Assembly: GCA_025455765.1 (NCBI GenBank)
Contig: JALOLX010000002.1
Coordinates: 1 to 30,702, forward strand
From: Flavobacteriales bacterium
GTDB taxonomy: Bacteria > Bacteroidota > Bacteroidia > Flavobacteriales_F > PHOS-HE28
Direction of reading: 5' to 3'
DNA: 30,702 bases
Position 1 is the first letter of the stretch. Each line of letters opens with the position of its first letter. A model generated the notes under the pieces. The model was given only the letters and a program-made list of their open reading frames with translations. It had not been told where the DNA came from and did no database searches. The position numbers and the translations under genes are program-made. Shown here in pieces: positions 15,385 through 26,164 of the stretch.

Positions 15385-15783
15385 ATGCAACGCCTGATCC
15401 GATCCTTCAACACGCTGACCGACGCGCTTAAGGAAACCCTCCAGGAGCAATACCCGGATGGGATCGATAGCACGCACATCAAATCCATCCCCACCGCCAA
15501 GGGAGAGATCCTGCGCGTGATCGAACTACGCACACCCGACGCCCTCTACCTCATCAAGATCAATCCCGAAAGCCGGGCCGAGATCGACGAGTTCCTCGAT
15601 CAGGAGGAAAGCACGCCGGCCGGTGAGGACATGGAAGGCGGTGATGACCTGGGTGGCGGCGATGAAGCCGAGACCGAGGAGGAGTCGGATGACGACGGCG
15701 GTGCCGACGAGGATGATGGTGATGACGACGACGGCGATGCCGATGCCGGGGATGATGATGGCGGTGACGATGACGAGGACTGA
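15385..15783 (+). CDS. Small protein with a folded N-terminal domain and an extremely acidic D/E/G tail
   Basis: Clean 132-aa ORF 12 nt after the DHS stop. The last ~60 aa are dominated by Asp, Glu and Gly. Confidence 0.8.
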   Translation: MQRLIRSFNTLTDALKETLQEQYPDGIDSTHIKSIPTAKGEILRVIELRTPDALYLIKINPESRAEIDEFLDQEESTPAGEDMEGGDDLGGGDEAETEEESDDDGGADEDDGDDDDGDADAGDDDGGDDDED

Positions 15784-16549: not shown

Positions 16550-16945
16550 TCAGTAGGTGCGCATGGCCACCAGGCCACCCTGCTCGTCGTAGCGCTCACC
16601 GGTGCGCAGTTCGCCTTCGGAGTGCCCCAAGCGGCCCAGCACCACATTGGTATGACTGCGGAACTCCCAGGTGCCTTGCCGCTCGCCTTTGCTGAAACGC
16701 GCTTGGGCCAGGAGCACACCCGTGTCGCTGTATTGCTTCCACACCCCATCGCGACGGCCATGGAGGAACCCGCCCATCTCGTGTACCCGACCGTTCTCGT
16801 AGTACGTGATGAAATGGATGCGCCCCGCCTCTTCGTACCGGGTGGACTTCAACGTACCATCGGGCCAATGCTCCTGTGATAGCAGGGTCTGGGCCGACGC
16901 CCATGTGCCTGAGACCAGGGCCAGAAGAAGGAGGATGGTGCGCAT
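16550..16945 (-). CDS. Secreted MORN-variant repeat protein (YwqK-like)
   Basis: Signal peptide MRTILLLLALVSGTWASAQ and repeats YYENGRVHEMG..LHGRRDGVWKQY / GERQGTWEF. Start placed at ATG 16945 rather than 16996. Confidence 0.8.
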   Translation of the reverse strand: MRTILLLLALVSGTWASAQTLLSQEHWPDGTLKSTRYEEAGRIHFITYYENGRVHEMGGFLHGRRDGVWKQYSDTGVLLAQARFSKGERQGTWEFRSHTNVVLGRLGHSEGELRTGERYDEQGGLVAMRTY

Positions 16946-16975
16946 GGTGGAACAGTTGTACATCCTTGATACGTC

Positions 16976-16983
16976 CAAAGATA
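16976..16983 (-). promoter_or_regulatory. Candidate -7 promoter element for the MORN-variant gene
   Basis: Reads TATCTTTG on the minus strand (TAnnTTTG), about 30 nt upstream of ATG 16945. Confidence 0.6.
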
Positions 16984-17073
16984 GCACAATGTTCACCCCG
17001 AGTTAACATGGATCTAACATTGGAAAATGGACCGTGGGGTGTGAACAACCCCAGGACCCGCCACTCAACAAGA

Positions 17074-17901
17074 TCAGAACGACAACCGCCCCTGCTGTTC
17101 CATGGCCAGGCGTAGCTGCCCGACCTCCTTGCGCAGCTCCACCACGCTGCGCGCCAGGTCGTCGCGGCTCATGTTGGGCTCGGGCAGCTCTGCACTGATG
17201 AAGTGTACGAACTTCCAGATCTCCAGCACGCTGGTGACAGGCACTTCATAGGGCGCATAGAGCGGGTTGGTGCTGCACAGCAACAGGGTGCCCTTCTCCT
17301 TCAATTGGTTGTACACCACCTTGAAGACGATGCCTTCATCCTTGGTGACCACGATGTACGGCTGCCCGTCGCGGATGGTCTGCCAGTTCTGCACGTACTC
17401 ACCGGTGACCCAGGAGCCATCGCTCACCGGGGGCATGCTGTCTCCACTGATCTGGAAGGTGCGGTACTTGCGGTCCTTGGCCAGGAACGGCATCTGGAAG
17501 GTGGGCAGGATGCTGATATATTCCGGATCGGCGTAGCCCAGCGCGTAGCCGGCCTTGGCCTTCTCGGGCACCAGCTCCACGTTCTCGCGATCGTCCTTGT
17601 CCACCGTGGTGGCCAACACACGCAGACGCCGACCACTGAGGTCGATGTCGCCCCCGCGCTCCAGGATGCCGAGCTGGCTTTCGCTGAGGGCGGTGAGGTC
17701 GTCCTTGAGCAGCTTGTCGATGCTCACCTTGAAGTATTCGCTCATGCGCACGAGCAGGTCGAACGAAGGCTCGGCGCTGCCGTTCTCATAGCCGCTGTAG
17801 CTGGAGCGTTTGATGTCGAGGCCGGCTGCTACCTCTTCCTGTGAACGGCCGCGGCGTTGGCGCAGGAGCTTGATGTTGGAGCCGAAGAGCGGAGTTGCCA
17901 T
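17074..17901 (-). CDS. XRE-HTH + peptidase S24 repressor (cI-like / non-canonical Bacteroidota LexA)
   Basis: HTH (RSQEEVAAGLDIKRSSYSGYENG), AKAGY autocleavage-site motif, FQISGDSM (Ser) and IVFK (Lys) dyad. Lies near dinB. Confidence 0.9.
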   Translation of the reverse strand: MATPLFGSNIKLLRQRRGRSQEEVAAGLDIKRSSYSGYENGSAEPSFDLLVRMSEYFKVSIDKLLKDDLTALSESQLGILERGGDIDLSGRRLRVLATTVDKDDRENVELVPEKAKAGYALGYADPEYISILPTFQMPFLAKDRKYRTFQISGDSMPPVSDGSWVTGEYVQNWQTIRDGQPYIVVTKDEGIVFKVVYNQLKEKGTLLLCSTNPLYAPYEVPVTSVLEIWKFVHFISAELPEPNMSRDDLARSVVELRKEVGQLRLAMEQQGRLSF

Positions 17902-17956
17902 GGTGATGAGTGTCTTATGAGGATCGAACGACTGTCCTAATGCTGTTGGGCGATGG

Positions 17957-18526
17957 TCATGCCTCGCCGGGTTTGAAGCCGATGGGTTTGCGGTGCTGCT
18001 CGGCCGGTGAGACCAGTTCGGTGAGGTGGTCGAAGAGGGCCTGTATCTCCTCGTCGTGACCAGAGAGTCGACCTTCCAGTTCTTTCAGCTTCGCCACGAC
18101 ATCGCTGCTGGATAGGAGCACCTCGCGCATGCGGGCAAATACGCGGATGATGTGGATGCTCATGGCAATGGCCTGTTCGCTGCGGAGCACGTTGGCGAGC
18201 ATCAGAATACCGTGTTCGGTGAAGGCAAAGGGTGCGTATTTGGCATGCTCGCCCTGCTTTAAGGTCGCAAAATGCGACCTTAAAGCATGATCCTCCTCCA
18301 GCGTCAGTTCGAGCATGAAGTCCTCTGGGAACCGAGCGATGTTACGGCGCACCTGCTCTTTGAGGCGCTTGACCTCCACGCCGTAAAGTTCAGCCAGGTC
18401 ACGGTCCAACATCACCTTCTGTCCGCGGATATGATGGATACGGCCGGTGATCGCCGCATCGGGAGGGGCCACAGTGCTGTAGCGGGTGGGTGGCTCCTGG
18501 AGCAGGGTGTCCGTGGCGGTGTTCAT
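17957..18526 (-). CDS. ORF6N (KilA-N-like) DNA-binding protein, copy 3
   Basis: IRGQKVMLDRDLAELYGV...RNIARFPEDFMLELT...FTEHGILMLANVL, then a coiled coil and RKPIGF tail. Confidence 0.92.
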   Translation of the reverse strand: MNTATDTLLQEPPTRYSTVAPPDAAITGRIHHIRGQKVMLDRDLAELYGVEVKRLKEQVRRNIARFPEDFMLELTLEEDHALRSHFATLKQGEHAKYAPFAFTEHGILMLANVLRSEQAIAMSIHIIRVFARMREVLLSSSDVVAKLKELEGRLSGHDEEIQALFDHLTELVSPAEQHRKPIGFKPGEA

Positions 18527-18552
18527 GCTTCAGCGGGTTTGAAGCCGATGGG
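18494..18552. repeat. Junction repeat of the ORF6N array (second copy at about 19075-19134)
   Basis: CTCCTGGAGCAGGGTGTCCGTGGCGGTGTTCATGC is identical at 18494 and 19075. Each is followed after a short variable linker by GGGTTTGAAGCCGATGGG, which also occurs at 17970. Confidence 0.9.
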
Positions 18553-19107
18553 CTTACGCTGCTGTTCGGCCGGTGAGACCAGTTCGGTGAGGTGATCGAA
18601 GATGGCCTGGATCTCCTCGTCGTGCCCGGAAAGGCGGCCCTCCAGTTGCTCCAGCTTCTGGAGGATCTCGCGGTGCGAAAGGAGCACTTCCCTCATCCGG
18701 CTGAATACACGGATGATGTGGATATTGACCAGAATGGCCTGCTCGCTGTTGAGGACGCTGGAGAGCATGGCCACGCCTTGCTCGGTAAAGGCCATGGGAA
18801 GTACCCTGGAACCACCTCGCTCTGAGAGGATCTGCTCGTTTGAGGTGCCAAATTGGTACCTCAAAGCGGCCCACTCGGCAGAGGTCAGTTCGAACATGAA
18901 GTCCTCTGGAAAGCGGGTGATGTTCCTGCGCACCTGGCGCTTAAGGTGCTTGGTCTCCACGCCGTACAGTTCAGCGAGGTCGCGGTCCAGCATCACCTTC
19001 TGACCACGGATCGCATGGATACGGCCGGTGATGGATGCATCGGCAGGGGCCACAGCGCTGTAGCGGGCGGGTGACTCCTGGAGCAGGGTGTCCGTGGCGG
19101 TGTTCAT
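18523..19107 (-). CDS. ORF6N (KilA-N-like) DNA-binding protein, copy 2
   Basis: IRGQKVMLDRDLAELYGV...RNITRFPEDFMFELT...FTEQGVAMLSSVL...RKPIGF. Stop overlaps the start of copy 3 (ATGA). Confidence 0.92.
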   Translation of the reverse strand: MNTATDTLLQESPARYSAVAPADASITGRIHAIRGQKVMLDRDLAELYGVETKHLKRQVRRNITRFPEDFMFELTSAEWAALRYQFGTSNEQILSERGGSRVLPMAFTEQGVAMLSSVLNSEQAILVNIHIIRVFSRMREVLLSHREILQKLEQLEGRLSGHDEEIQAIFDHLTELVSPAEQQRKPIGFKPAEA

Positions 19108-19113
19108 GCCTGA

Positions 19114-19725
19114 TCAGGGTTTGAAGCCGATGGGCTTGCGTGGCTCCGACGGCGGAGCGAGCAGCTGCTTGAGGTATTCGAAGATGCTCTGGATGTCGGT
19201 GCCATGCTCGCCTATCCGCTTCTCGAGTTGCTCCAAGCGAAGGAGGATGTCCTTGTGGGCGAGCATTGCCTCGCGCATACGCACAAAGAGATCGATGATG
19301 CGGATGCTGACAGCGATGGCTTGTTCGCTCTTGAGCACATTCGCGAGCATGAGGATGCCGTGCTCGGTGAAACCATACGGCAGGGTACCGCCGGTGTGGC
19401 TGTGGGAAGGTATCGCATTCTGCGATACCAAGTCGCGTAACTCACTGGGTGTTAGCTGGAACATGAATTGTTCCGGGAAGCGGGCGATGTTCCGCTTCAC
19501 CTGCTCACGCAGACGGATGGGCTTAACCCCATAGAGCACGGCCAGATCGCGGTCCAGCATCACCTTCTGGCCACGGATGTGGCGGACCTTACCAAGGAGC
19601 ACATCATCAGTAAGGTGACCGATCGTGTAGTCGGCAGGTGGTTCCGCTAACACGAGATGCCGCATGGGCAGCAGGTCCGTGTAGGCGGGCTTCTGAAAGA
19701 GGTTGTCCGTTGCCAGGGTTCTCAT
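19114..19725 (-). CDS. ORF6N (KilA-N-like) DNA-binding protein, copy 1
   Basis: IRGQKVMLDRDLAVLYGV...RNIARFPEQFMFQLT...FTEHGILMLANVL...RKPIGFKP. Alternative start at 19665. Confidence 0.92.
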   Translation of the reverse strand: MRTLATDNLFQKPAYTDLLPMRHLVLAEPPADYTIGHLTDDVLLGKVRHIRGQKVMLDRDLAVLYGVKPIRLREQVKRNIARFPEQFMFQLTPSELRDLVSQNAIPSHSHTGGTLPYGFTEHGILMLANVLKSEQAIAVSIRIIDLFVRMREAMLAHKDILLRLEQLEKRIGEHGTDIQSIFEYLKQLLAPPSEPRKPIGFKP

Positions 19726-19752
19726 CGATCGGCTGACCGGTTATCTGCCGGG

Positions 19753-19782
19753 CAAAGATAATGACTATTTTACCGCCTGCAA
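19753..19782 (-). promoter_or_regulatory. Bacteroidota sigma-A promoter (TTG-N19-TAnnTTTG) for the ORF6N array and probably the repressor
   Basis: Minus-strand TATCTTTG at 19760-19753 and TTG at 19782-19780 with a 19-nt spacer, in a locally AT-rich patch. Confidence 0.7.
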
Positions 19783-19821
19783 CATGACAGTTATCTTGTC
19801 AATACCGGACGGTTGGGCGGA

Positions 19822-19975
19822 GCGGGGACCCCGCGCCCGGGATGGGAGCGGCGGCTCCCGCACGGCAGGGCCCTGCGGAGGCGTGCAACGAGGAGGCACC
19901 GAGGAACGAGGGGACCCCGCAGTGCCGCCACCGCTGGCATGGCCGCGCGGGACCACAGCGGACAGCCCGAAAAGG
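19822..19975. repeat. GC-rich multi-hairpin element (REP/MITE-like or ncRNA)
   Basis: GCGGGG-A-CCCCGC (19822-34), GGGAGC-GGCG-GCTCCC (19844-59), GCAGGGCCCTGC (19865-76), and GGGGACCCCGC repeated at 19824 and 19910. Confidence 0.55.
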
Positions 19976-19981
19976 CGCCCA

Positions 19982-20005
19982 CCCTTCGACTCCGCTCAGG
20001 GTGAC
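19982..20005. repeat. Bacteroidota REP-like unit CCCTTCGACTCCGCTCAGGGTGAC
   Basis: Resembles the GTCA(C/T)CCTGAGCG(G/A)AGTCGAAGG palindromic repeat I recall as widespread in Bacteroidota (not searched). Single copy here. Confidence 0.6.
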
Positions 20006-20011
20006 GCCGCG

Positions 20012-20096
20012 GATCGGATAATGGGATGCAAGACCGATGATCACAACGCCCCATCTACCACCAAGCTGCATTTTCTGATCATCTGATCTTCTGATC
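20012..20096. repeat. TCTGATC-rich imperfect hairpin element upstream of dinB
   Basis: GATCGGATAATGG (20012-24) and TGATCATCTGATCTTCT (20076-92) both recur downstream of dinB. Confidence 0.7.
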
Positions 20097-20107
20097 GACC
20101 GATCGAC

Positions 20108-21325
20108 ATGGAACGCACCATCCTTCACATCGATCTCAACACCTTCTTCGTGAGCGTGGAACGGCTGCGTGAACCGAAGCTGAACGGCAAGCCCGTGCTG
20201 ATCGGCGCCGACAGCGACCGCGGCGTGGTGGCCAGTTGCAGCTACGAGGCGCGTGCCTTCGGGGTGCGCAGCGCCATGCCCATGAAGATGGCCAAGCAGC
20301 TGTGCCCCGAAGCCATCATCCTGCGCGGCGACAGCGGCCTCTACCTGAAGAAGAGCGACGAGGTGACCGAGATCATCCGCGCCAACGTGCCGCTCTTCGA
20401 GAAGAGCAGCGTGGACGAGTTCTACGTGGATCTGAGCGGCACCGACAAATTCCACGGAAGCCAGAAACTGGCGCGGGAGCTGCGGCAGCGCATCATCAAC
20501 GAGAGCGGGCTGCCCAACAGCTTCGGCATGAGCATCAACAAGACGGTGAGCAAGGTGGCCACCGGCGAGGCCAAGGGCGGCGCAGGCGAGTGGTATGTGG
20601 AGCGCGGCACGGAGAAGCCCTTCCTGGCGCCGATGCCCATTGAGCGCATCCCCGGCGTGGGCGAGAAGACGGCGCACCTGCTGCGCAGCATGGGCGTGGC
20701 GAAGATCCACACGCTGCAGGAGGTGCCCATGGACCTGATGCAGCGCCTGCTGGGCGAGCATGGGCCGGTGCTGTGGCGCAAGGCCAACGGCATCGACGAC
20801 AGCCCCGTGGTGGCCTGGCACGAACGCAAAAGCATCAGCACCGAACGCACCTTTGAGCGCGACACCATCGATGTGCCCAAGCTCAAGGGCCTGCTCACCG
20901 CCATGGCCGAGAGCCTCGCCTTCCAGCTGCGCAAGGGGCAGAAGCTCACCAGCTGCGTGGCCGTGAAGATCCGCTACGCCGACTTCAACACCCACACCAA
21001 GCAGCTGCGCATCCCCTACACGGCCTGCGACCACCTGATCCTGCCCACGGTGCACGAGCTGTTCCGCAGCCTCTACGACCGCCGCCAGCGCATCCGCCTG
21101 ATCGGTGTGCGCTTCAGCCACCTGGTGGGCGGCGGGCACCAGATCGATGCCTTCACCGATACGGAGGAAGCCATGAGTCTCTACCAGGCCATGGACAAGA
21201 TCCGCAAGCGCTTCGGCGACCGCACCGTGATGCGCGCCAGCGGCATGGATGCCAAGAGCATCGGCCGCATGGACAACCCCTTTGATGGGCAGGCGCCGGT
21301 GTTGCTGGCGAACAGGAGAAGCTGA
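20108..21325 (+). CDS. dinB: DNA polymerase IV (Y-family)
   Basis: ILHIDLNTFFVSVE, VVASCSYEAR.FGVRSAMP, SSVDEFYVDL, IPGVG, KSISTERTF. Confidence 0.96.
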   Translation: MERTILHIDLNTFFVSVERLREPKLNGKPVLIGADSDRGVVASCSYEARAFGVRSAMPMKMAKQLCPEAIILRGDSGLYLKKSDEVTEIIRANVPLFEKSSVDEFYVDLSGTDKFHGSQKLARELRQRIINESGLPNSFGMSINKTVSKVATGEAKGGAGEWYVERGTEKPFLAPMPIERIPGVGEKTAHLLRSMGVAKIHTLQEVPMDLMQRLLGEHGPVLWRKANGIDDSPVVAWHERKSISTERTFERDTIDVPKLKGLLTAMAESLAFQLRKGQKLTSCVAVKIRYADFNTHTKQLRIPYTACDHLILPTVHELFRSLYDRRQRIRLIGVRFSHLVGGGHQIDAFTDTEEAMSLYQAMDKIRKRFGDRTVMRASGMDAKSIGRMDNPFDGQAPVLLANRRS

Positions 21326-21494: not shown

Positions 21495-21543
21495 TCTTGA
21501 GCAAGGGCTGTAGTTGCCTTGGCCAAGCCCGCATCCCACCTTG
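21495..21543. promoter_or_regulatory. Phased CTTG-N2-CAAG palindromes (candidate operator array)
   Basis: TCTTG-AG-CAAGG at 21495, CCTTG-GC-CAAGC at 21517 and half-site CCTTG at 21539, an exact 22-bp period. Confidence 0.45.
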
Positions 21544-21686
21544 GGGGTCTAGCCGCCTATTTTGTAACTCCGTCCTCCCTTCCCCGTCCCATTACCGGTC
21601 ATCGCACCTTCCCGACCGTCCGTGTGATCGGCCTTTCTGCTGCATCTTCACGCTCCATCTTGCACCCTGCAAACCCTCCACCCCGC

Positions 21687-22574
21687 ATGCAACTCGTCAT
21701 CAACGGCCTCAGCAAGACCTACGGCAACGGCGTGAAAGCGCTGGACAACGTGAGCCTCACCATCCCCACCGGCATGTTCGGACTACTGGGGCCCAACGGC
21801 GCCGGCAAAAGTTCGCTCATGCGCATCCTGGCCACGTTGCAGGAGGCCGATGCGGGCACGATCATGCTCGGCGATCTGGATGTGCTCAACCAGAAACATG
21901 AGGTGCGCAAGGTGCTCGGCTACCTGCCGCAGGAGTTCGGTGTGTACCCCAAGGTGAGCGCCTACCAGATGCTCGACCACATCGCACTGCTGAAAGGAGT
22001 GATCGCCAATGGCGAACGCAAACAACTGGTGGAGGCCCTGCTGCAAAAGGTGAACCTCTGGGACCATCGCAACCGTCGCATCGCAGGCTTCAGCGGTGGC
22101 ATGAAACAACGCTTCGGCATCGCCCAGGCGCTCATCGGCGACCCCAAGCTCATCATCGTGGATGAACCCACCGCAGGCCTCGACCCCGGCGAGCGCAACC
22201 GCTTCTATAACCTGCTCACGGAGATCGGCGAGAACGTGGTGGTGATCCTCAGCACCCACATCGTGCAGGATGTGCAGGAGCTGTGCAACAACATGGCCAT
22301 CATCAACAAGGGCCAGCTGCTCTTCGCAGGTTCACCCAGCGATGCGCTGCGTGCTGCAGAAGGCCACATCTGGGAGAAGCGGATCAGCAAGAGCGAACTG
22401 GAGCACCACCTCGCAACACACCGGGTCATCAGCAACAAGCTCATCGCAGGCAGCCCGGTGATCCACGTCTTCAACAGCACCCGGCCCGCCGATGACTTCG
22501 TACCGGTGGAACCCAACCTTGAGGATGTGTTCTTCAGCCACATCAACGGCACCCTCAACACCACCGCAGCATGA
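21687..22574 (+). CDS. ABC transporter ATP-binding protein
   Basis: Walker A GPNGAGKS, signature FSGGMKQR, Walker B IIVDEPTAGLD, and H-loop STH. Confidence 0.95.
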   Translation: MQLVINGLSKTYGNGVKALDNVSLTIPTGMFGLLGPNGAGKSSLMRILATLQEADAGTIMLGDLDVLNQKHEVRKVLGYLPQEFGVYPKVSAYQMLDHIALLKGVIANGERKQLVEALLQKVNLWDHRNRRIAGFSGGMKQRFGIAQALIGDPKLIIVDEPTAGLDPGERNRFYNLLTEIGENVVVILSTHIVQDVQELCNNMAIINKGQLLFAGSPSDALRAAEGHIWEKRISKSELEHHLATHRVISNKLIAGSPVIHVFNSTRPADDFVPVEPNLEDVFFSHINGTLNTTAA

Positions 22575-25500
22575 CCTGGCGGCTCTTCCTCCTCGAAGTG
22601 CGCCATTGGCTCCGTCAGCCCATGGTGTACATCTTCCTGCTCCTCTTCGCCCTGATCGGCTTCGGTCTGGTGACGTGGGATAAGCTGGTGGTGGGTGGGC
22701 AGCTGGCCAACGTGCAGTTGAACGCCCCTTACATGGTGTTCCAGTACTACGCCGTCATGGGGTTCCTGGGGCTGCTGATGGTGACCGCCTTCGTCAACGC
22801 CAGCGCCATCCGTGACTTCGCGAACAACACCCAGCAGATCATGTTCAGCACACCGCTGAAGAAAAGCCACTACCTGCTGAGCCGCTTCCTGGGCAGCACC
22901 TTCGTGGCGTCGCTTCCGCTGCTGGGCATCTCGCTGGGTATGCTGCTGGGCAGCGCCATGCCCTGGGTGGATCCCGAACGGCTGGGTCCGAACGATCTGA
23001 TGGCCCATGCGCAGGCCTACCTCTACCTCAGCCTGCCCAATATCCTGTTCTCCTCGGCCATCATCTTCTCGGTGGCCGTTCTGATGCGCAGTACGGCGGC
23101 AGCCTTCATCACGGCCGTTGTGATCATGGTGGGCAATGGTGTGGCCGACACCTTCATGGGCGAGATGGAGAACCAGACCCTCGCCGCATTGCTCGACCCC
23201 TTCGCCGGCATCGCGTTCGAACTGGTATCGCGCTACTGGACGGTGGACGACAAGAACACCCTGCTGCTGCCCATGAACGGCGTGTTCCTGTGGAACCGCA
23301 TCCTCTGGCTGGCCATCGCGGCTGGCATCTTCGGGCTGGGCTACTGGCGCTTCAGCTTCAGTGAGCGCAACAAGGTGGGCAAGCTTCCGCCGGCCACTTC
23401 GGAAGTGGAAGCGCTCCGCGCCGCCGCCGCTCCACTTCCCAAGGTGTCGCGCCAGCATGGCACCAGCGCGCGTTTCCGGCAATGGCGTCGCATCGTGTGG
23501 AACGACTTCACAGGCATGCTCCGTGGAACGGCCTTCCTGCTGGTCACGGGCATCGGCCTGCTCAACATGTTCTTGAGCCTGGCCTTCTCCACCTCGCTGT
23601 ACGAGAACACCATCCACCCGGTGACCTACCGCGTGAACGACATCACCGAGGGCACGTTCTCGCTCTTCCTCCTGATCCTGGTGACCTTCTACAGCGGTCT
23701 GCTCGTGTGGAAGGAACGGGAGCCCAAGCTGGATGAAGTACACGATGCCACGCCCATCCCATTGGGACTCTCACTGTTCGGCAAGTACACGGCCCTGGTA
23801 CTGCTCCTCGCTGTGGTGCTCAGCATTTCGGCGTTCGGAGGAATGATCTACCAGCTCACCCAAGGCTACACACGGCTTGAGCTCAACGTCTACCTCGGCA
23901 ATTACGTCCTACCGAACCTCGTCGGCTTGTCCATCATGTCCGCGCTCGCCTTCGCCATCCATGTGCTGGTGAACAACAAGTACGTGGGCTACGCCGTGTT
24001 CATTGTGTTCCTGGTGGGCAATGGCATCCTGCTCAATGCGTTGGACATCACCACGCGGCTGGCCAGCTTCAACAGCGCCCCCAGCGACCCCTATTCGGAC
24101 ATGAACGCCTATGGCACGTCGCTGCGGGCCTGGGCCTGGTTCAAGGCGTATTGGGGCGCCTTCGCTGCAGTGTTGATGAGCGTTGCGCTCCTCTTCTGGA
24201 TCCGTGGGCGGGAGACCGAACGGGCCTGGCGCCTGCGGCTTGCGGGCCAACGGCTGCGCACCACCCGTTGGTTGCTCTTGCCCGCACTGGCCGCGTGGAT
24301 CGGTCTTGGTGCCTGGAACTACTACAACACCAAGGTGCTCAACAAAATGGTCGGCGAGGACCAGTTGGAGGAGGACCGCGTGTACTACGAACGGACCTAC
24401 AAGAAGTACGAAGGCATCCCCCAGCCCCACTATACCGACATCCGCTTCACCATCGACCTGGTCCCTGCTGAACGCTCGCTGCACAGTGTGGCGGAGGTCA
24501 CTGTGCGCAACAAGTCGCGCGTACCGATCGATTCCCTCCACCTGAACCTGGGCGGCGGCGGGATCGAGCAGGAGGTGAGCATCCCCGGTGCCCAGCTGGT
24601 GGTGAACGACGAACGGGTGGACTACCGCATCTACAAGCTGGACAAGGCCCTGCAGCCGGGAGAGGAACTGCGCTTCACCGTTACCGCAAGCCACACGGAA
24701 CGCGGGTTCGAGAACAACGTGACCGCCATGCAGTTGAACCACAACGGCACCTTCTTCAACAACATGGACCTCATCCCGCTGATCGGATATACGGCCGACG
24801 GCGAATTGCAGGACAAGAACGACCGCAAGGACCATGACCTGCCGCCCAAGGAGCGCATGCCACGCCTCACCAGCGACAGCCTCGCGCGGATGCAGCAGTA
24901 CTTGATGCCCAACAGTGACTGGGTGAACGTGAGCACCATCATCAGCACCACTCCCGATCAGATCGCCATCGCGCCAGGAAGCCTCAAGCGCGAATGGACC
25001 GAGAACGGCAAGCGCTACTTCGAGTACGTGGTGGACCATCCCAGCATGAACTTCTACTCCTTCATGAGCGCCCGCTATGAAGTACACCGGGAGAAGTTCG
25101 ACGGAGTTGACGTGGAGGTGTACTACCATCCCGACCATGCTGAGAACGTGCCGCGCATGGCACAGAGCATCAAACGTTCGCTCGCCTACTACGGCACACA
25201 CTTCGGTCCCTATCGGCACAAGCAGGCGCGCATCATCGAGTTCCCCCGCTACCAGAGCTTCGCTCAGGCCTTCCCCGGCACCATGCCGTACAGCGAAGCC
25301 ATCGGCTTCATCGCTGACCTGAGCGACACCACCGACATCGATATGGTGTTCTACGTGGTGGCGCACGAGATGGGGCACCAGTGGTGGGCGCACCAGGTGA
25401 TGGGCGCCGACATGCAGGGCAGCACGCTCCTGAGCGAGACCATGTCACAATACAGCGCGCTGATGGTGATGGAGGAGGAGTACGGCCGCGCACAGATGCG

Positions 25501-26164
25501 GAAGTTCCTCAAGCTGGAGAGCGATCGCTACCAAAGTGCACGCGGAACCGAAGAGCTGAAGGAAGTACCGCTGCTCGAAGTGGAGAACCAGGGCTACGTC
25601 CATTATAACAAGGGTAGCGTGGTGCTTTACTGCCTGCGCGACTTCGTGGGCGAGGATAAGCTGAACCATGCCTTCCGTAACCTGGTGGACACCTTCGCCT
25701 ACGCCGAACCACCCTACCCCACCGCCCTCGACATGTACCGCGAACTGGAACAGGTGGTGCCGGACAGCTTGGAGTACCTGCTCATCGATGGGTTCAAGAA
25801 GATCACGCTCTACAACAACCGTGTGGATAAGGCCACGGCCCGCATGCTACCGGACAGTACGTACGAGGTGACCGTGGAGATCTTCGGCGAGAAGAATTAC
25901 GCGGACTCGCTCGGTCGCGAGACCCCTGCAACGATGAACGATTGGATGGACGTCAGCATCCTCCGCTACCCCAAGTTGGGAATGAAGGCGGACAAGTCGC
26001 TGAACGACGTACCACTGGTGCAACAGCGCATGCGACTTCGTTCCGGAGTGAACACGCTCACCTTCGTGGTACCGGAGAAGCCCATGCAGGCCGTGGTCGA
26101 TCGGGACAATCTGTTCTTCGACCGTGTGATGCAGGACAATATGAAGACGGTGGAGGTGCCCTGA
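22571..26164 (+). CDS. ABC-2 type permease fused to an M1-family aminopeptidase domain (copy 1)
   Basis: About 600 aa of TM helices in two permease halves, then an extracytoplasmic domain with VVAHEMGHQWW...SE (zinc motif) and HYNKG. Confidence 0.92.
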   Translation: MTWRLFLLEVRHWLRQPMVYIFLLLFALIGFGLVTWDKLVVGGQLANVQLNAPYMVFQYYAVMGFLGLLMVTAFVNASAIRDFANNTQQIMFSTPLKKSHYLLSRFLGSTFVASLPLLGISLGMLLGSAMPWVDPERLGPNDLMAHAQAYLYLSLPNILFSSAIIFSVAVLMRSTAAAFITAVVIMVGNGVADTFMGEMENQTLAALLDPFAGIAFELVSRYWTVDDKNTLLLPMNGVFLWNRILWLAIAAGIFGLGYWRFSFSERNKVGKLPPATSEVEALRAAAAPLPKVSRQHGTSARFRQWRRIVWNDFTGMLRGTAFLLVTGIGLLNMFLSLAFSTSLYENTIHPVTYRVNDITEGTFSLFLLILVTFYSGLLVWKEREPKLDEVHDATPIPLGLSLFGKYTALVLLLAVVLSISAFGGMIYQLTQGYTRLELNVYLGNYVLPNLVGLSIMSALAFAIHVLVNNKYVGYAVFIVFLVGNGILLNALDITTRLASFNSAPSDPYSDMNAYGTSLRAWAWFKAYWGAFAAVLMSVALLFWIRGRETERAWRLRLAGQRLRTTRWLLLPALAAWIGLGAWNYYNTKVLNKMVGEDQLEEDRVYYERTYKKYEGIPQPHYTDIRFTIDLVPAERSLHSVAEVTVRNKSRVPIDSLHLNLGGGGIEQEVSIPGAQLVVNDERVDYRIYKLDKALQPGEELRFTVTASHTERGFENNVTAMQLNHNGTFFNNMDLIPLIGYTADGELQDKNDRKDHDLPPKERMPRLTSDSLARMQQYLMPNSDWVNVSTIISTTPDQIAIAPGSLKREWTENGKRYFEYVVDHPSMNFYSFMSARYEVHREKFDGVDVEVYYHPDHAENVPRMAQSIKRSLAYYGTHFGPYRHKQARIIEFPRYQSFAQAFPGTMPYSEAIGFIADLSDTTDIDMVFYVVAHEMGHQWWAHQVMGADMQGSTLLSETMSQYSALMVMEEEYGRAQMRKFLKLESDRYQSARGTEELKEVPLLEVENQGYVHYNKGSVVLYCLRDFVGEDKLNHAFRNLVDTFAYAEPPYPTALDMYRELEQVVPDSLEYLLIDGFKKITLYNNRVDKATARMLPDSTYEVTVEIFGEKNYADSLGRETPATMNDWMDVSILRYPKLGMKADKSLNDVPLVQQRMRLRSGVNTLTFVVPEKPMQAVVDRDNLFFDRVMQDNMKTVEVP

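Follow-up and report, generated by a model that had tools for sequence, protein, structure and literature searches.

Tandem ORF6N genes as variable leading cistrons of a predicted SOS-controlled lexA operon in a Flavobacteriales bacterium

Why should three genes of one DNA-binding-type family be placed between the promoter and the coding sequence of an SOS repressor? This question is raised by a 30,702-nucleotide stretch of DNA from a Flavobacteriales bacterium (positions 1 to 30,702 of contig JALOLX010000002.1, assembly GCA_025455765.1), hereafter called the window. The genome carries the NCBI label 'Flavobacteriales bacterium' and comes from an uncultured lineage of Bacteroidia, a GTDB order of about 130 species that is essentially one genus. 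On the minus strand of the window, three intact ORF6N genes follow each other head to tail: ORF6N_a (19114-19725; 203 residues, with a 17-residue N-terminal insert), which is the first cistron, ORF6N_b (18523-19107; 194 residues) and ORF6N_c (17957-18526; 189 residues), the second and third cassettes. A gap of 6 nucleotides (19108-19113) separates a from b, and the stop codon of b overlaps the start codon of c in an ATGA motif. After a spacer of 55 nucleotides (17902-17956), the last cistron (17074-17901) encodes a LexA-like repressor of 275 residues, in which an XRE-type helix-turn-helix (HTH) is joined to an S24 peptidase domain. The dinB gene, coding for DNA polymerase IV (20108-21325, plus strand, 405 residues), diverges from this group. 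An initial annotation made from the sequence had described the same arrangement, and all its gene coordinates, the gap, the ATGA overlap and the divergent dinB were found again in the open reading frame (ORF) list and in the sequence. As predicted from the promoter region, the lexA operon opens with these ORF6N genes, which lie behind an operator also used at recA and recN.

The minus strand between 17000 and 19800 contains a single TAnnTTTG motif. This -7 box (TATCTTTG, 19760-19753) is preceded, 19 nucleotides upstream, by a TTG triplet (-33, 19782-19780), and the two elements form a Bacteroidota-type promoter for the four-gene operon (19753-19782), located where the initial annotation had put it. 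The 55-nucleotide spacer in front of lexA is devoid of TAnnTTTG, as that annotation had also claimed, and of any operator-like site, and its conservation among relatives is limited to the bases just before the ATG. A scan for sigma-70-type promoters and terminators, which is ill-suited to Bacteroidota, gave nothing above chance. ATGA overlaps between cassettes recur in many relatives and, in one of them (G073), the start of lexA itself overlaps the last ORF6N gene. Since there is one promoter and the genes overlap or nearly touch, in this genome and repeatedly in its relatives, a, b, c and lexA are likely to form a single transcript, in agreement with the original proposal.

A palindrome, TGACA-N7-TGTCA (TTGACAAGATAACTGTCAT, 19784-19802), abuts the -33 element and lies between the divergent promoters of the lexA operon and dinB. 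In the alignment of the promoters of relatives, the conserved block consists of this palindrome, the -33 element, a 'TAAATTAGTCAT' stretch and the -7 box, and it precedes the first cistron whether this is an ORF6N gene or lexA. Neither of the published Bacteroidetes LexA motifs, GGA-N5-TCC and CTAA-N5-TTAG, was present in the lexA-dinB intergenic region. A weight matrix was derived from 22 orthologous sites and the whole metagenome-assembled genome (MAG) of 2.3 Mb was scanned with a cut-off of 14 bits. Only four sites reached this value: the lexA operator (24.1 bits, a score that is partly circular because the site is among the 22 used for the matrix), a box upstream of recA (23.9 bits; C70:4208 of G000, this MAG), a box overlapping the start of recN (26.3 bits; C141:5330 of the same MAG) and a weak intragenic site of 16.0 bits. 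In five of five relatives, recA or bcp-recA was likewise preceded by a box of 19.6-26.1 bits. Since the other high-scoring copies in the MAG precede recA and recN, TGACA-N7-TGTCA is likely to be the SOS operator, and the SOS wiring put forward by the initial annotation is, on these computational grounds, likely as well. The presence of strong boxes at only recA and recN besides the lexA operon defines a very small predicted core SOS regulon. In two relatives (L209 of G109 and L212 of G071), a gene for a Bcp-like peroxiredoxin is found between the SOS box and recA, so that here too an SOS promoter is separated from its gene by an additional cistron.

On the dinB strand, the operator is situated just downstream of a -7-like box. 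Since this geometry equals that of recA and recN, one operator probably serves both the lexA operon and dinB. The coupling to Pol IV that had been suggested for the array comes down to this divergent operator, common to both. The dinB product contains the IMS (E = 7e-45), IMS_C (E = 2e-26) and HHH domains of Pfam and scores 276.5 with the NCBIfam model PRK02406 (cut-off 256), which identifies it as DNA polymerase IV. In most relatives whose contig extends far enough to show it, dinB again lies next to the operon and diverges from it.

The repressor was analysed for its relationship to LexA. Pfam recognised HTH_3 (E = 7e-17) and Peptidase_S24 (E = 4.5e-7) domains, and the residues Ala117-Gly118, Ser155 and Lys194 are invariant across 26 homologues. 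Among 132 genomes of the order, 125 retain the gene; it is the sole S24-domain gene found in the MAG, which is 72% complete and in which no canonical LexA DNA-binding domain was found. Because of the invariant residues, the single S24 gene and the missing canonical domain, the protein is assigned from its sequence to the non-canonical LexA of Bacteroidota, as the initial annotation had recognised. This class has been published: in Bacteroidetes, the non-canonical LexA is autoregulated through a palindrome, has dinB as its neighbour and governs a small set of genes, recA among them (Sanchez-Osuna et al. 2021, PMC8565304). The predicted operator described here is a third type for repressors of this kind.

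The three proteins encoded upstream of lexA belong to the Pfam family ORF6N (PF10543), with E values of 1.4e-29 (a), 1.1e-34 (b) and 1.8e-32 (c) and scores of 102.6, 119.0 and 111.9 bits, respectively, against a curated cut-off of 27.8. ORF6N_b and ORF6N_c are 74% identical, and a shares 52-55% identity with each of them. All three matched over their full length the PADLOC family PDC-S05 (E = 2e-51, 6e-57 and 8e-57 for a, b and c), the model PDLC04856 being covered at positions 8-175 of 177; the N-terminal half of a second model, PDLC04869, was matched strongly as well. Among the candidate defence families that still await a mechanism, PDC-S05 is one of the most abundant. In a preprint (bioRxiv 10.1101/2024.09.26.614923), one representative is reported to have cut T7 and T5 plating in E. 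coli by a factor of about 1000. The AlphaFold2 (AF2) model of ORF6N_b (predicted local distance difference test, pLDDT, 75) consists of a confident alpha/beta domain (residues 20-120), two helices (122-159 and 164-177) and disordered tails, and the C-terminal half of the ORF6N proteins is predicted to be a coiled coil. A Foldseek search of this model against the PDB gave no match at E 0.001 or better. In a wider structure search (VIA), residues 20-122 were matched to the Dachshund/Ski DNA-binding fold (Z 6.6, root-mean-square deviation 2.9 Å, 82 residues aligned) and the long helix resembled generic coiled coils; these model-based matches are weak leads.

The lexA region of 101 species was then compared, the ORF6N genes being counted when they were directly upstream of lexA on the same strand; five of the counted loci are truncated at the end of a contig. 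No copy was found in 51 species, one copy in 22, two in 24 and three in 4 (this window, G081, G044 and G109), the a-b-c order of the window recurring in G109. Since one to three ORF6N genes recur in 50 of the 101 related species, the arrangement is not due to chance. At least five types of ORF6N were distinguished, represented by 17 (a), 31 (b), 25 (c), 6 (d1) and 4 (d2) intact genes and combined in the orders a-b, b-a, b-c, c-b, b-d, c-c, a-c and d-c. The commonest type is that of ORF6N_b, which was found in 30 other species (64-92% identity); orthologues of ORF6N_c are present in 24 other species (57-85% identity) and ORF6N_a falls within a well-supported 'a' clade (100/99). These results fit the description of the array as an expandable panel given by the initial annotation, which had called for such a comparison of copy number. 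Frameshifted copies were observed in four species.

The species that lack ORF6N at lexA are of two kinds. Those nested in the array-bearing clade possess a lexA leader of 63-172 nucleotides with a mini-ORF at the usual start site of ORF6N, and in the deeper ones the -7 box is 21-28 nucleotides from the lexA ATG. In three species, a mini-ORF of 23 codons fuses the N-terminus of ORF6N to its C-terminus in frame (for example 'MMETLA...GAVGFKPAEA', then the stop). Such scars, seen in the ORF6N-less leaders of L036, L109, L110, L169, L041 and others, keep the first and sometimes the last codons of ORF6N, and therefore whole cassettes would have been deleted with the start site of the leader spared. 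The LexA tree requires at least 17 presence/absence changes of ORF6N. The existence of two kinds of leader thus points to an entry of ORF6N into the lexA leader once or a few times, followed, as the compared loci indicate, by duplication, exchange and repeated deletion. In a tree of 63 ORF6N proteins, 37 linked to lexA and 26 from elsewhere are split on one branch (92/98), so that the array is a resident lineage and not a series of captures. Judged from these comparisons, the array is a conserved yet fast-turning set of paralogues specific to the lineage.

Away from lexA, the ORF6N genes of these genomes occur singly, inserted between housekeeping genes, some of them adjoining integrase/HTH, PDC-S13 (Bro-N), HNH or Schlafen-type genes. 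The fourth ORF6N gene of the MAG (L095:5338-5925, minus strand, where L095 is G000:C70:4000-15000) is located about 4 kb from recA, and its neighbours encode a ParA-like ATPase, a protein with Schlafen/AlbA_2 and HATPase_c_4 domains and two proteins of unknown family (568 and 142 residues). The matrix scan of the whole MAG revealed no SOS box near this gene.

The selection acting on the array was estimated from the ratio of nonsynonymous to synonymous substitution rates (dN/dS), the values being approximate because dS is near saturation. Orthologous ORF6N pairs gave 0.10-0.39 (by type, 0.11-0.32 for a, 0.11-0.26 for b and 0.10-0.20 for c), dinB 0.10-0.14, and lexA 0.08-0.12 in all pairs but one, which reached 0.27 against the most distant species compared. 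The domain cores of the ORF6N proteins showed 0.05-0.17, and the disordered N-terminal tail together with an internal segment (residues 76-104 of b) 0.33-0.86, with some pairs above 1. The sequences thus indicate that the ORF6N genes are under purifying selection and that their internal segment is hypervariable. The possibility raised at the outset that the array is a one-off decaying insertion is clearly contradicted by this selection and by the recurrence in relatives. The nucleotide sequences of b and c agree fully (100%) for roughly the first 25 codons, to only 30-60% in the middle, and to 84-93% towards the 3' end, where most windows of the comparison give 91-93%; this mosaic points to gene conversion at the ends.

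What, then, might these proteins do? A role in conflict is the most likely one, because PDC-S05 is a candidate single-gene anti-phage defence and because birth-and-death turnover is typical of conflict genes. The ORF6N proteins may be damage-gated factors directed against phages, induced prophages or other mobile DNA and produced from the autoregulated lexA operon, a reading to which we would give nearly, if not quite, an even chance. In undamaged cells, the LexA-like repressor bound to the operator would silence the ORF6N genes, lexA and probably dinB. DNA damage would lead to self-cleavage of the repressor stimulated by RecA, for which the Ala-Gly, Ser and Lys residues are intact, and the promoter would open. 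The ORF6N proteins would be made in a pulse alongside new LexA, which would reclose the operon. Each of them, with its small DNA-binding-type alpha/beta domain and its long coiled-coil helices, would probably form a dimer or an oligomer, and the hypervariable segment together with the several types of paralogue would give different targets.

Several points weigh against this damage-gated defence role. The phage-tested representative of PDC-S05 carried a RhuM domain (bioRxiv 10.1101/2024.09.26.614923), and no such domain was detected by Pfam in a, b or c. The locus is a conserved chromosomal SOS locus and not a defence island, its neighbours being lexA, dinB and conserved housekeeping genes. 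Half of the species (51 of 101) do without ORF6N at lexA. Both co-transcription and damage induction are predictions drawn from motifs and from the tight packing of the genes, and there may be a weak internal promoter. The operator motif is unlike both published ones and the binding of LexA to it is predicted, as is the binding of DNA by the ORF6N proteins, whose structural matches are middling (Z below 8). Finally, the near-saturation of dS, mentioned above, makes the estimates of selection approximate.

A bolder form of the defence reading, possible but doubtful, is that of an integrase-free 'immune panel' inside the master SOS operon, in which the paralogues would recognise different foreign DNA or proteins through their hypervariable segment and constitute a self-limiting, damage-triggered defence circuit. 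The paralogues might pair through their conserved coiled coils and so combine their specificities, in-register recombination at the conserved 5' and 3' ends of the coding sequences might create new combinations, and the position ahead of lexA would tie dose and timing to the resynthesis of LexA. If true, this would be a type of circuit not yet described.

Among the other explanations, the one that survives best, although we consider it unlikely, is that the ORF6N proteins are antirepressors or co-regulators which bind the LexA-like repressor or resident CI-type repressors and speed, prolong or diversify derepression after damage. Analogues of such a function are Tum of phage 186, GfoA and GfhA of the Gifsy prophages and the co-repressor DdrR, which acts with UmuDAb. 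The LexA-type control of the promoter is reminiscent of Tum and the Gifsy antirepressors; production from one transcript with the repressor, the stop and start codons overlapping in some cases, would be fitting for a partner needed in stoichiometric amounts, and several types of paralogue could match several repressors. The N-terminal domains also match PHROG 'anti-repressor' families (phrog_4792, E = 1e-24 to 1e-27). However, this match is restricted to the N-terminal domain, and the PHROG label stems from proteins with an ANT-type C-terminal domain: neither ANT nor another known repressor-binding domain was found by Pfam in a, b or c, which contain ORF6N and a sub-threshold Phage_pRha match. 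The 'antirepressor' label on the ORF6N proteins is thus, judging by their domain content, an annotation carry-over. The whole protein, including the C-terminal helices and an RKPIGF tail, is common to ORF6N genes located far from any repressor, and half of the species keep a LexA of 87-98% identity without any ORF6N. Unlike phage antirepressors, the array is not encoded by a prophage or other mobile element, the chromosomal gene order being conserved across the order. Relatives are rare in phages (5 of 50,697 genome records), and in IMG/VR, where relatives were found at 231 loci, none of the 80 loci inspected, which hold full-length relatives, had an S24 repressor adjoining ORF6N, one weak S24-like match lying about 1.9 kb away; a phage module made of ORF6N and an S24 repressor was rejected on these same observations. 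Moreover, it is hard to see what purpose a LexA antirepressor would serve if it were made only after LexA is gone. Co-folding of ORF6N_b with the LexA-like protein gave a score of 0.00, which carries no weight either way. The regulation of LexA itself by the ORF6N proteins is therefore a less likely role than defence, and the antirepressor function suggested by the initial annotation, with its N-terminal match, its missing ANT domain and its scarce full-length relatives in phages, was not upheld.

It is improbable, too, that the genes are selfish cassettes, that is, self-propagating single-gene inserts which sit behind a strong regulated promoter without benefit to the host and persist by recombination among their conserved ends or by a mild addiction effect. 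The solitary ORF6N inserts between housekeeping genes elsewhere, the high turnover, the shuffled order, the frameshifted copies and deletion scars, and the mosaic ends would all be expected of such elements. In contrast, the domain cores experience purifying selection of the same strength as lexA does, orthologous types persist in many species, and the lexA-linked copies form one separate lineage instead of repeated captures. The junctions (the 6-nucleotide gap and the 4-nucleotide overlap) are without repeats, attC-like sites or recombinase, and the base composition equals that of the host, with a G+C content of about 0.59-0.62 that is even across the locus. An integron-like mechanism was considered and rejected on the same junctions, no recombinase being present among the conserved neighbours.

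No more probable than selfish cassettes are housekeeping SOS effectors, DNA- or nucleoid-binding proteins that would act on the cell's own chromosome to pause replication or division in the manner of SulA or YneA or to control a second tier of genes: the operator position that places them in the SOS regulon, the modelled architecture of a DNA-binding-type domain plus coiled coil and the frequent proximity of SOS checkpoint genes to lexA in other phyla speak for such a role, but a core function is hard to reconcile with genes that only half of the species possess, that vary from zero to three in number and comprise at least five types, and whose specificity segment is hypervariable, no ORF6N gene was found within 1.5 kb of the LexA-like genes at 23 loci from other Bacteroidia families outside the order, and known division inhibitors, which are small and either reside in the membrane or bind FtsZ, have other folds.

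The surroundings of the operon were also inspected. Between the SOS operator and dinB lies a G+C-rich structured element of about 145 nucleotides (19840-19985, plus strand) with a long predicted hairpin, conserved at the same place in at least 20 relatives with 72-91% identity. Its fold comprises 39 predicted pairs, 21 of them with compensatory changes in 20 species; 94.7% of the cells are paired versus 86.3% in shuffled alignments (0 of 500 reach the observed value), about 40% with slid partners, and the G-U pairs favour the dinB-sense strand. An Rfam search of 16900-20300 on both strands with E up to 1 gave no match. Copies were detected elsewhere in the same MAG (C232:4160-4287, 74% identical) and in relatives (L096:356-485 and L041:4682-4810). 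From these comparisons, the element could represent the leader of dinB, a small RNA or one member of a small repeat family. The 39 bases that precede the dinB start (20069-20107, plus strand) are built on repeated TGATC units and recur with 83-100% identity in more than 12 other contigs of the MAG and in relatives; this lineage may use the stretch commonly as a 5' leader or as a context for translation starts.

The flanking genes (deoxyhypusine-synthase-like, acidic protein, glyoxalase and MORN) keep their order in relatives, which agrees with the earlier remark that no other phage genes are present. The small acidic protein (15385-15783, plus strand), whose C-terminal third is nearly all Asp, Glu and Gly, adjoins the deoxyhypusine-synthase-like gene in relatives too. 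Further along the window, an ABC ATPase-like gene (21519-22574) is followed by an ORF of 1197 residues (22571-26164, plus strand) whose translation displays a hydrophobic, multi-pass-looking N-terminal half and a HEMGH...E zinc-peptidase motif in the C-terminal half.

How does this locus compare with known systems? Tum of coliphage 186 and GfoA/GfhA of the Gifsy prophages are likewise encoded by small genes behind a LexA-type operator and made only after damage, as predicted here; unlike the ORF6N genes, which are chromosomal and belong to the operon of a cleavable repressor, they are prophage-encoded, belong to unrelated families and act on a non-cleavable phage repressor. In the dinB-yafN-yafO-yafP operon of E. 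coli, a toxin-antitoxin pair is included in the LexA-controlled Pol IV operon, so that in E. coli, as predicted here, LexA control at the Pol IV locus extends to accessory genes of conflict type; those of E. coli come after dinB and are fixed in number, whereas here they precede lexA, number zero to three and are of another family. In CBASS controlled by CapH/CapP, as under other damage-induced defence regulators, a dedicated repressor-protease pair serves one defence operon. A damage-inactivated XRE-type repressor would gate candidate immune genes at the present locus as well, but this would be the cell's own SOS master repressor acting from inside its own operon. Integron cassette arrays, whose integrase is LexA-controlled, share with the ORF6N array the promoter-proximal promoterless cassettes, the variable number and order and the link to SOS; here, in contrast, there is neither integrase nor attC or attI, and all cassettes come from a single paralogous family, with nothing but their own conserved coding ends to delimit them.

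The proteins themselves resemble PDC-S05 in their full-length match and as small single genes that behave as cassettes, although PDC-S05 as defined is embedded in defence loci and the genes described here are tandem arrays in a lexA operon. The repressor is like the non-canonical LexA of Bacteroidetes (PMC8565304) in its CI/XRE-type HTH joined to S24 with Ala-Gly, Ser and Lys kept and, by prediction, in the palindrome of its own promoter, its dinB neighbour and recA in its regulon. It differs by its operator, TGACA-N7-TGTCA instead of GGA-N5-TCC or CTAA-N5-TTAG, and by the up to three extra cistrons that precede lexA, the published study mentioning no ORF6N or KilA genes. The term 'candidate new system' used by the initial annotation is thus overstated, since the family is already PDC-S05 of PADLOC and the repressor class is published (PMC8565304). 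Nothing linking ORF6N with LexA was found in the literature searched. The repressor class, its dinB neighbourhood, the protein family as a defence candidate and damage-gated accessory or defence genes were already known; the new features are the ORF6N/PDC-S05 genes as variable, tandem, promoter-proximal lexA cistrons and the TGACA-N7-TGTCA operator, absent from that literature. The arrangement would give PDC-S05 a natural regulatory context, direct control by an SOS operator, and shows that the leader of an essential regulator's operon can act as a fast-evolving landing pad for accessory genes, which bears on how defence or accessory genes gain stress control without a dedicated regulator. To the non-canonical LexA systems of Bacteroidota, it adds a third predicted type of operator and an unusual operon structure.

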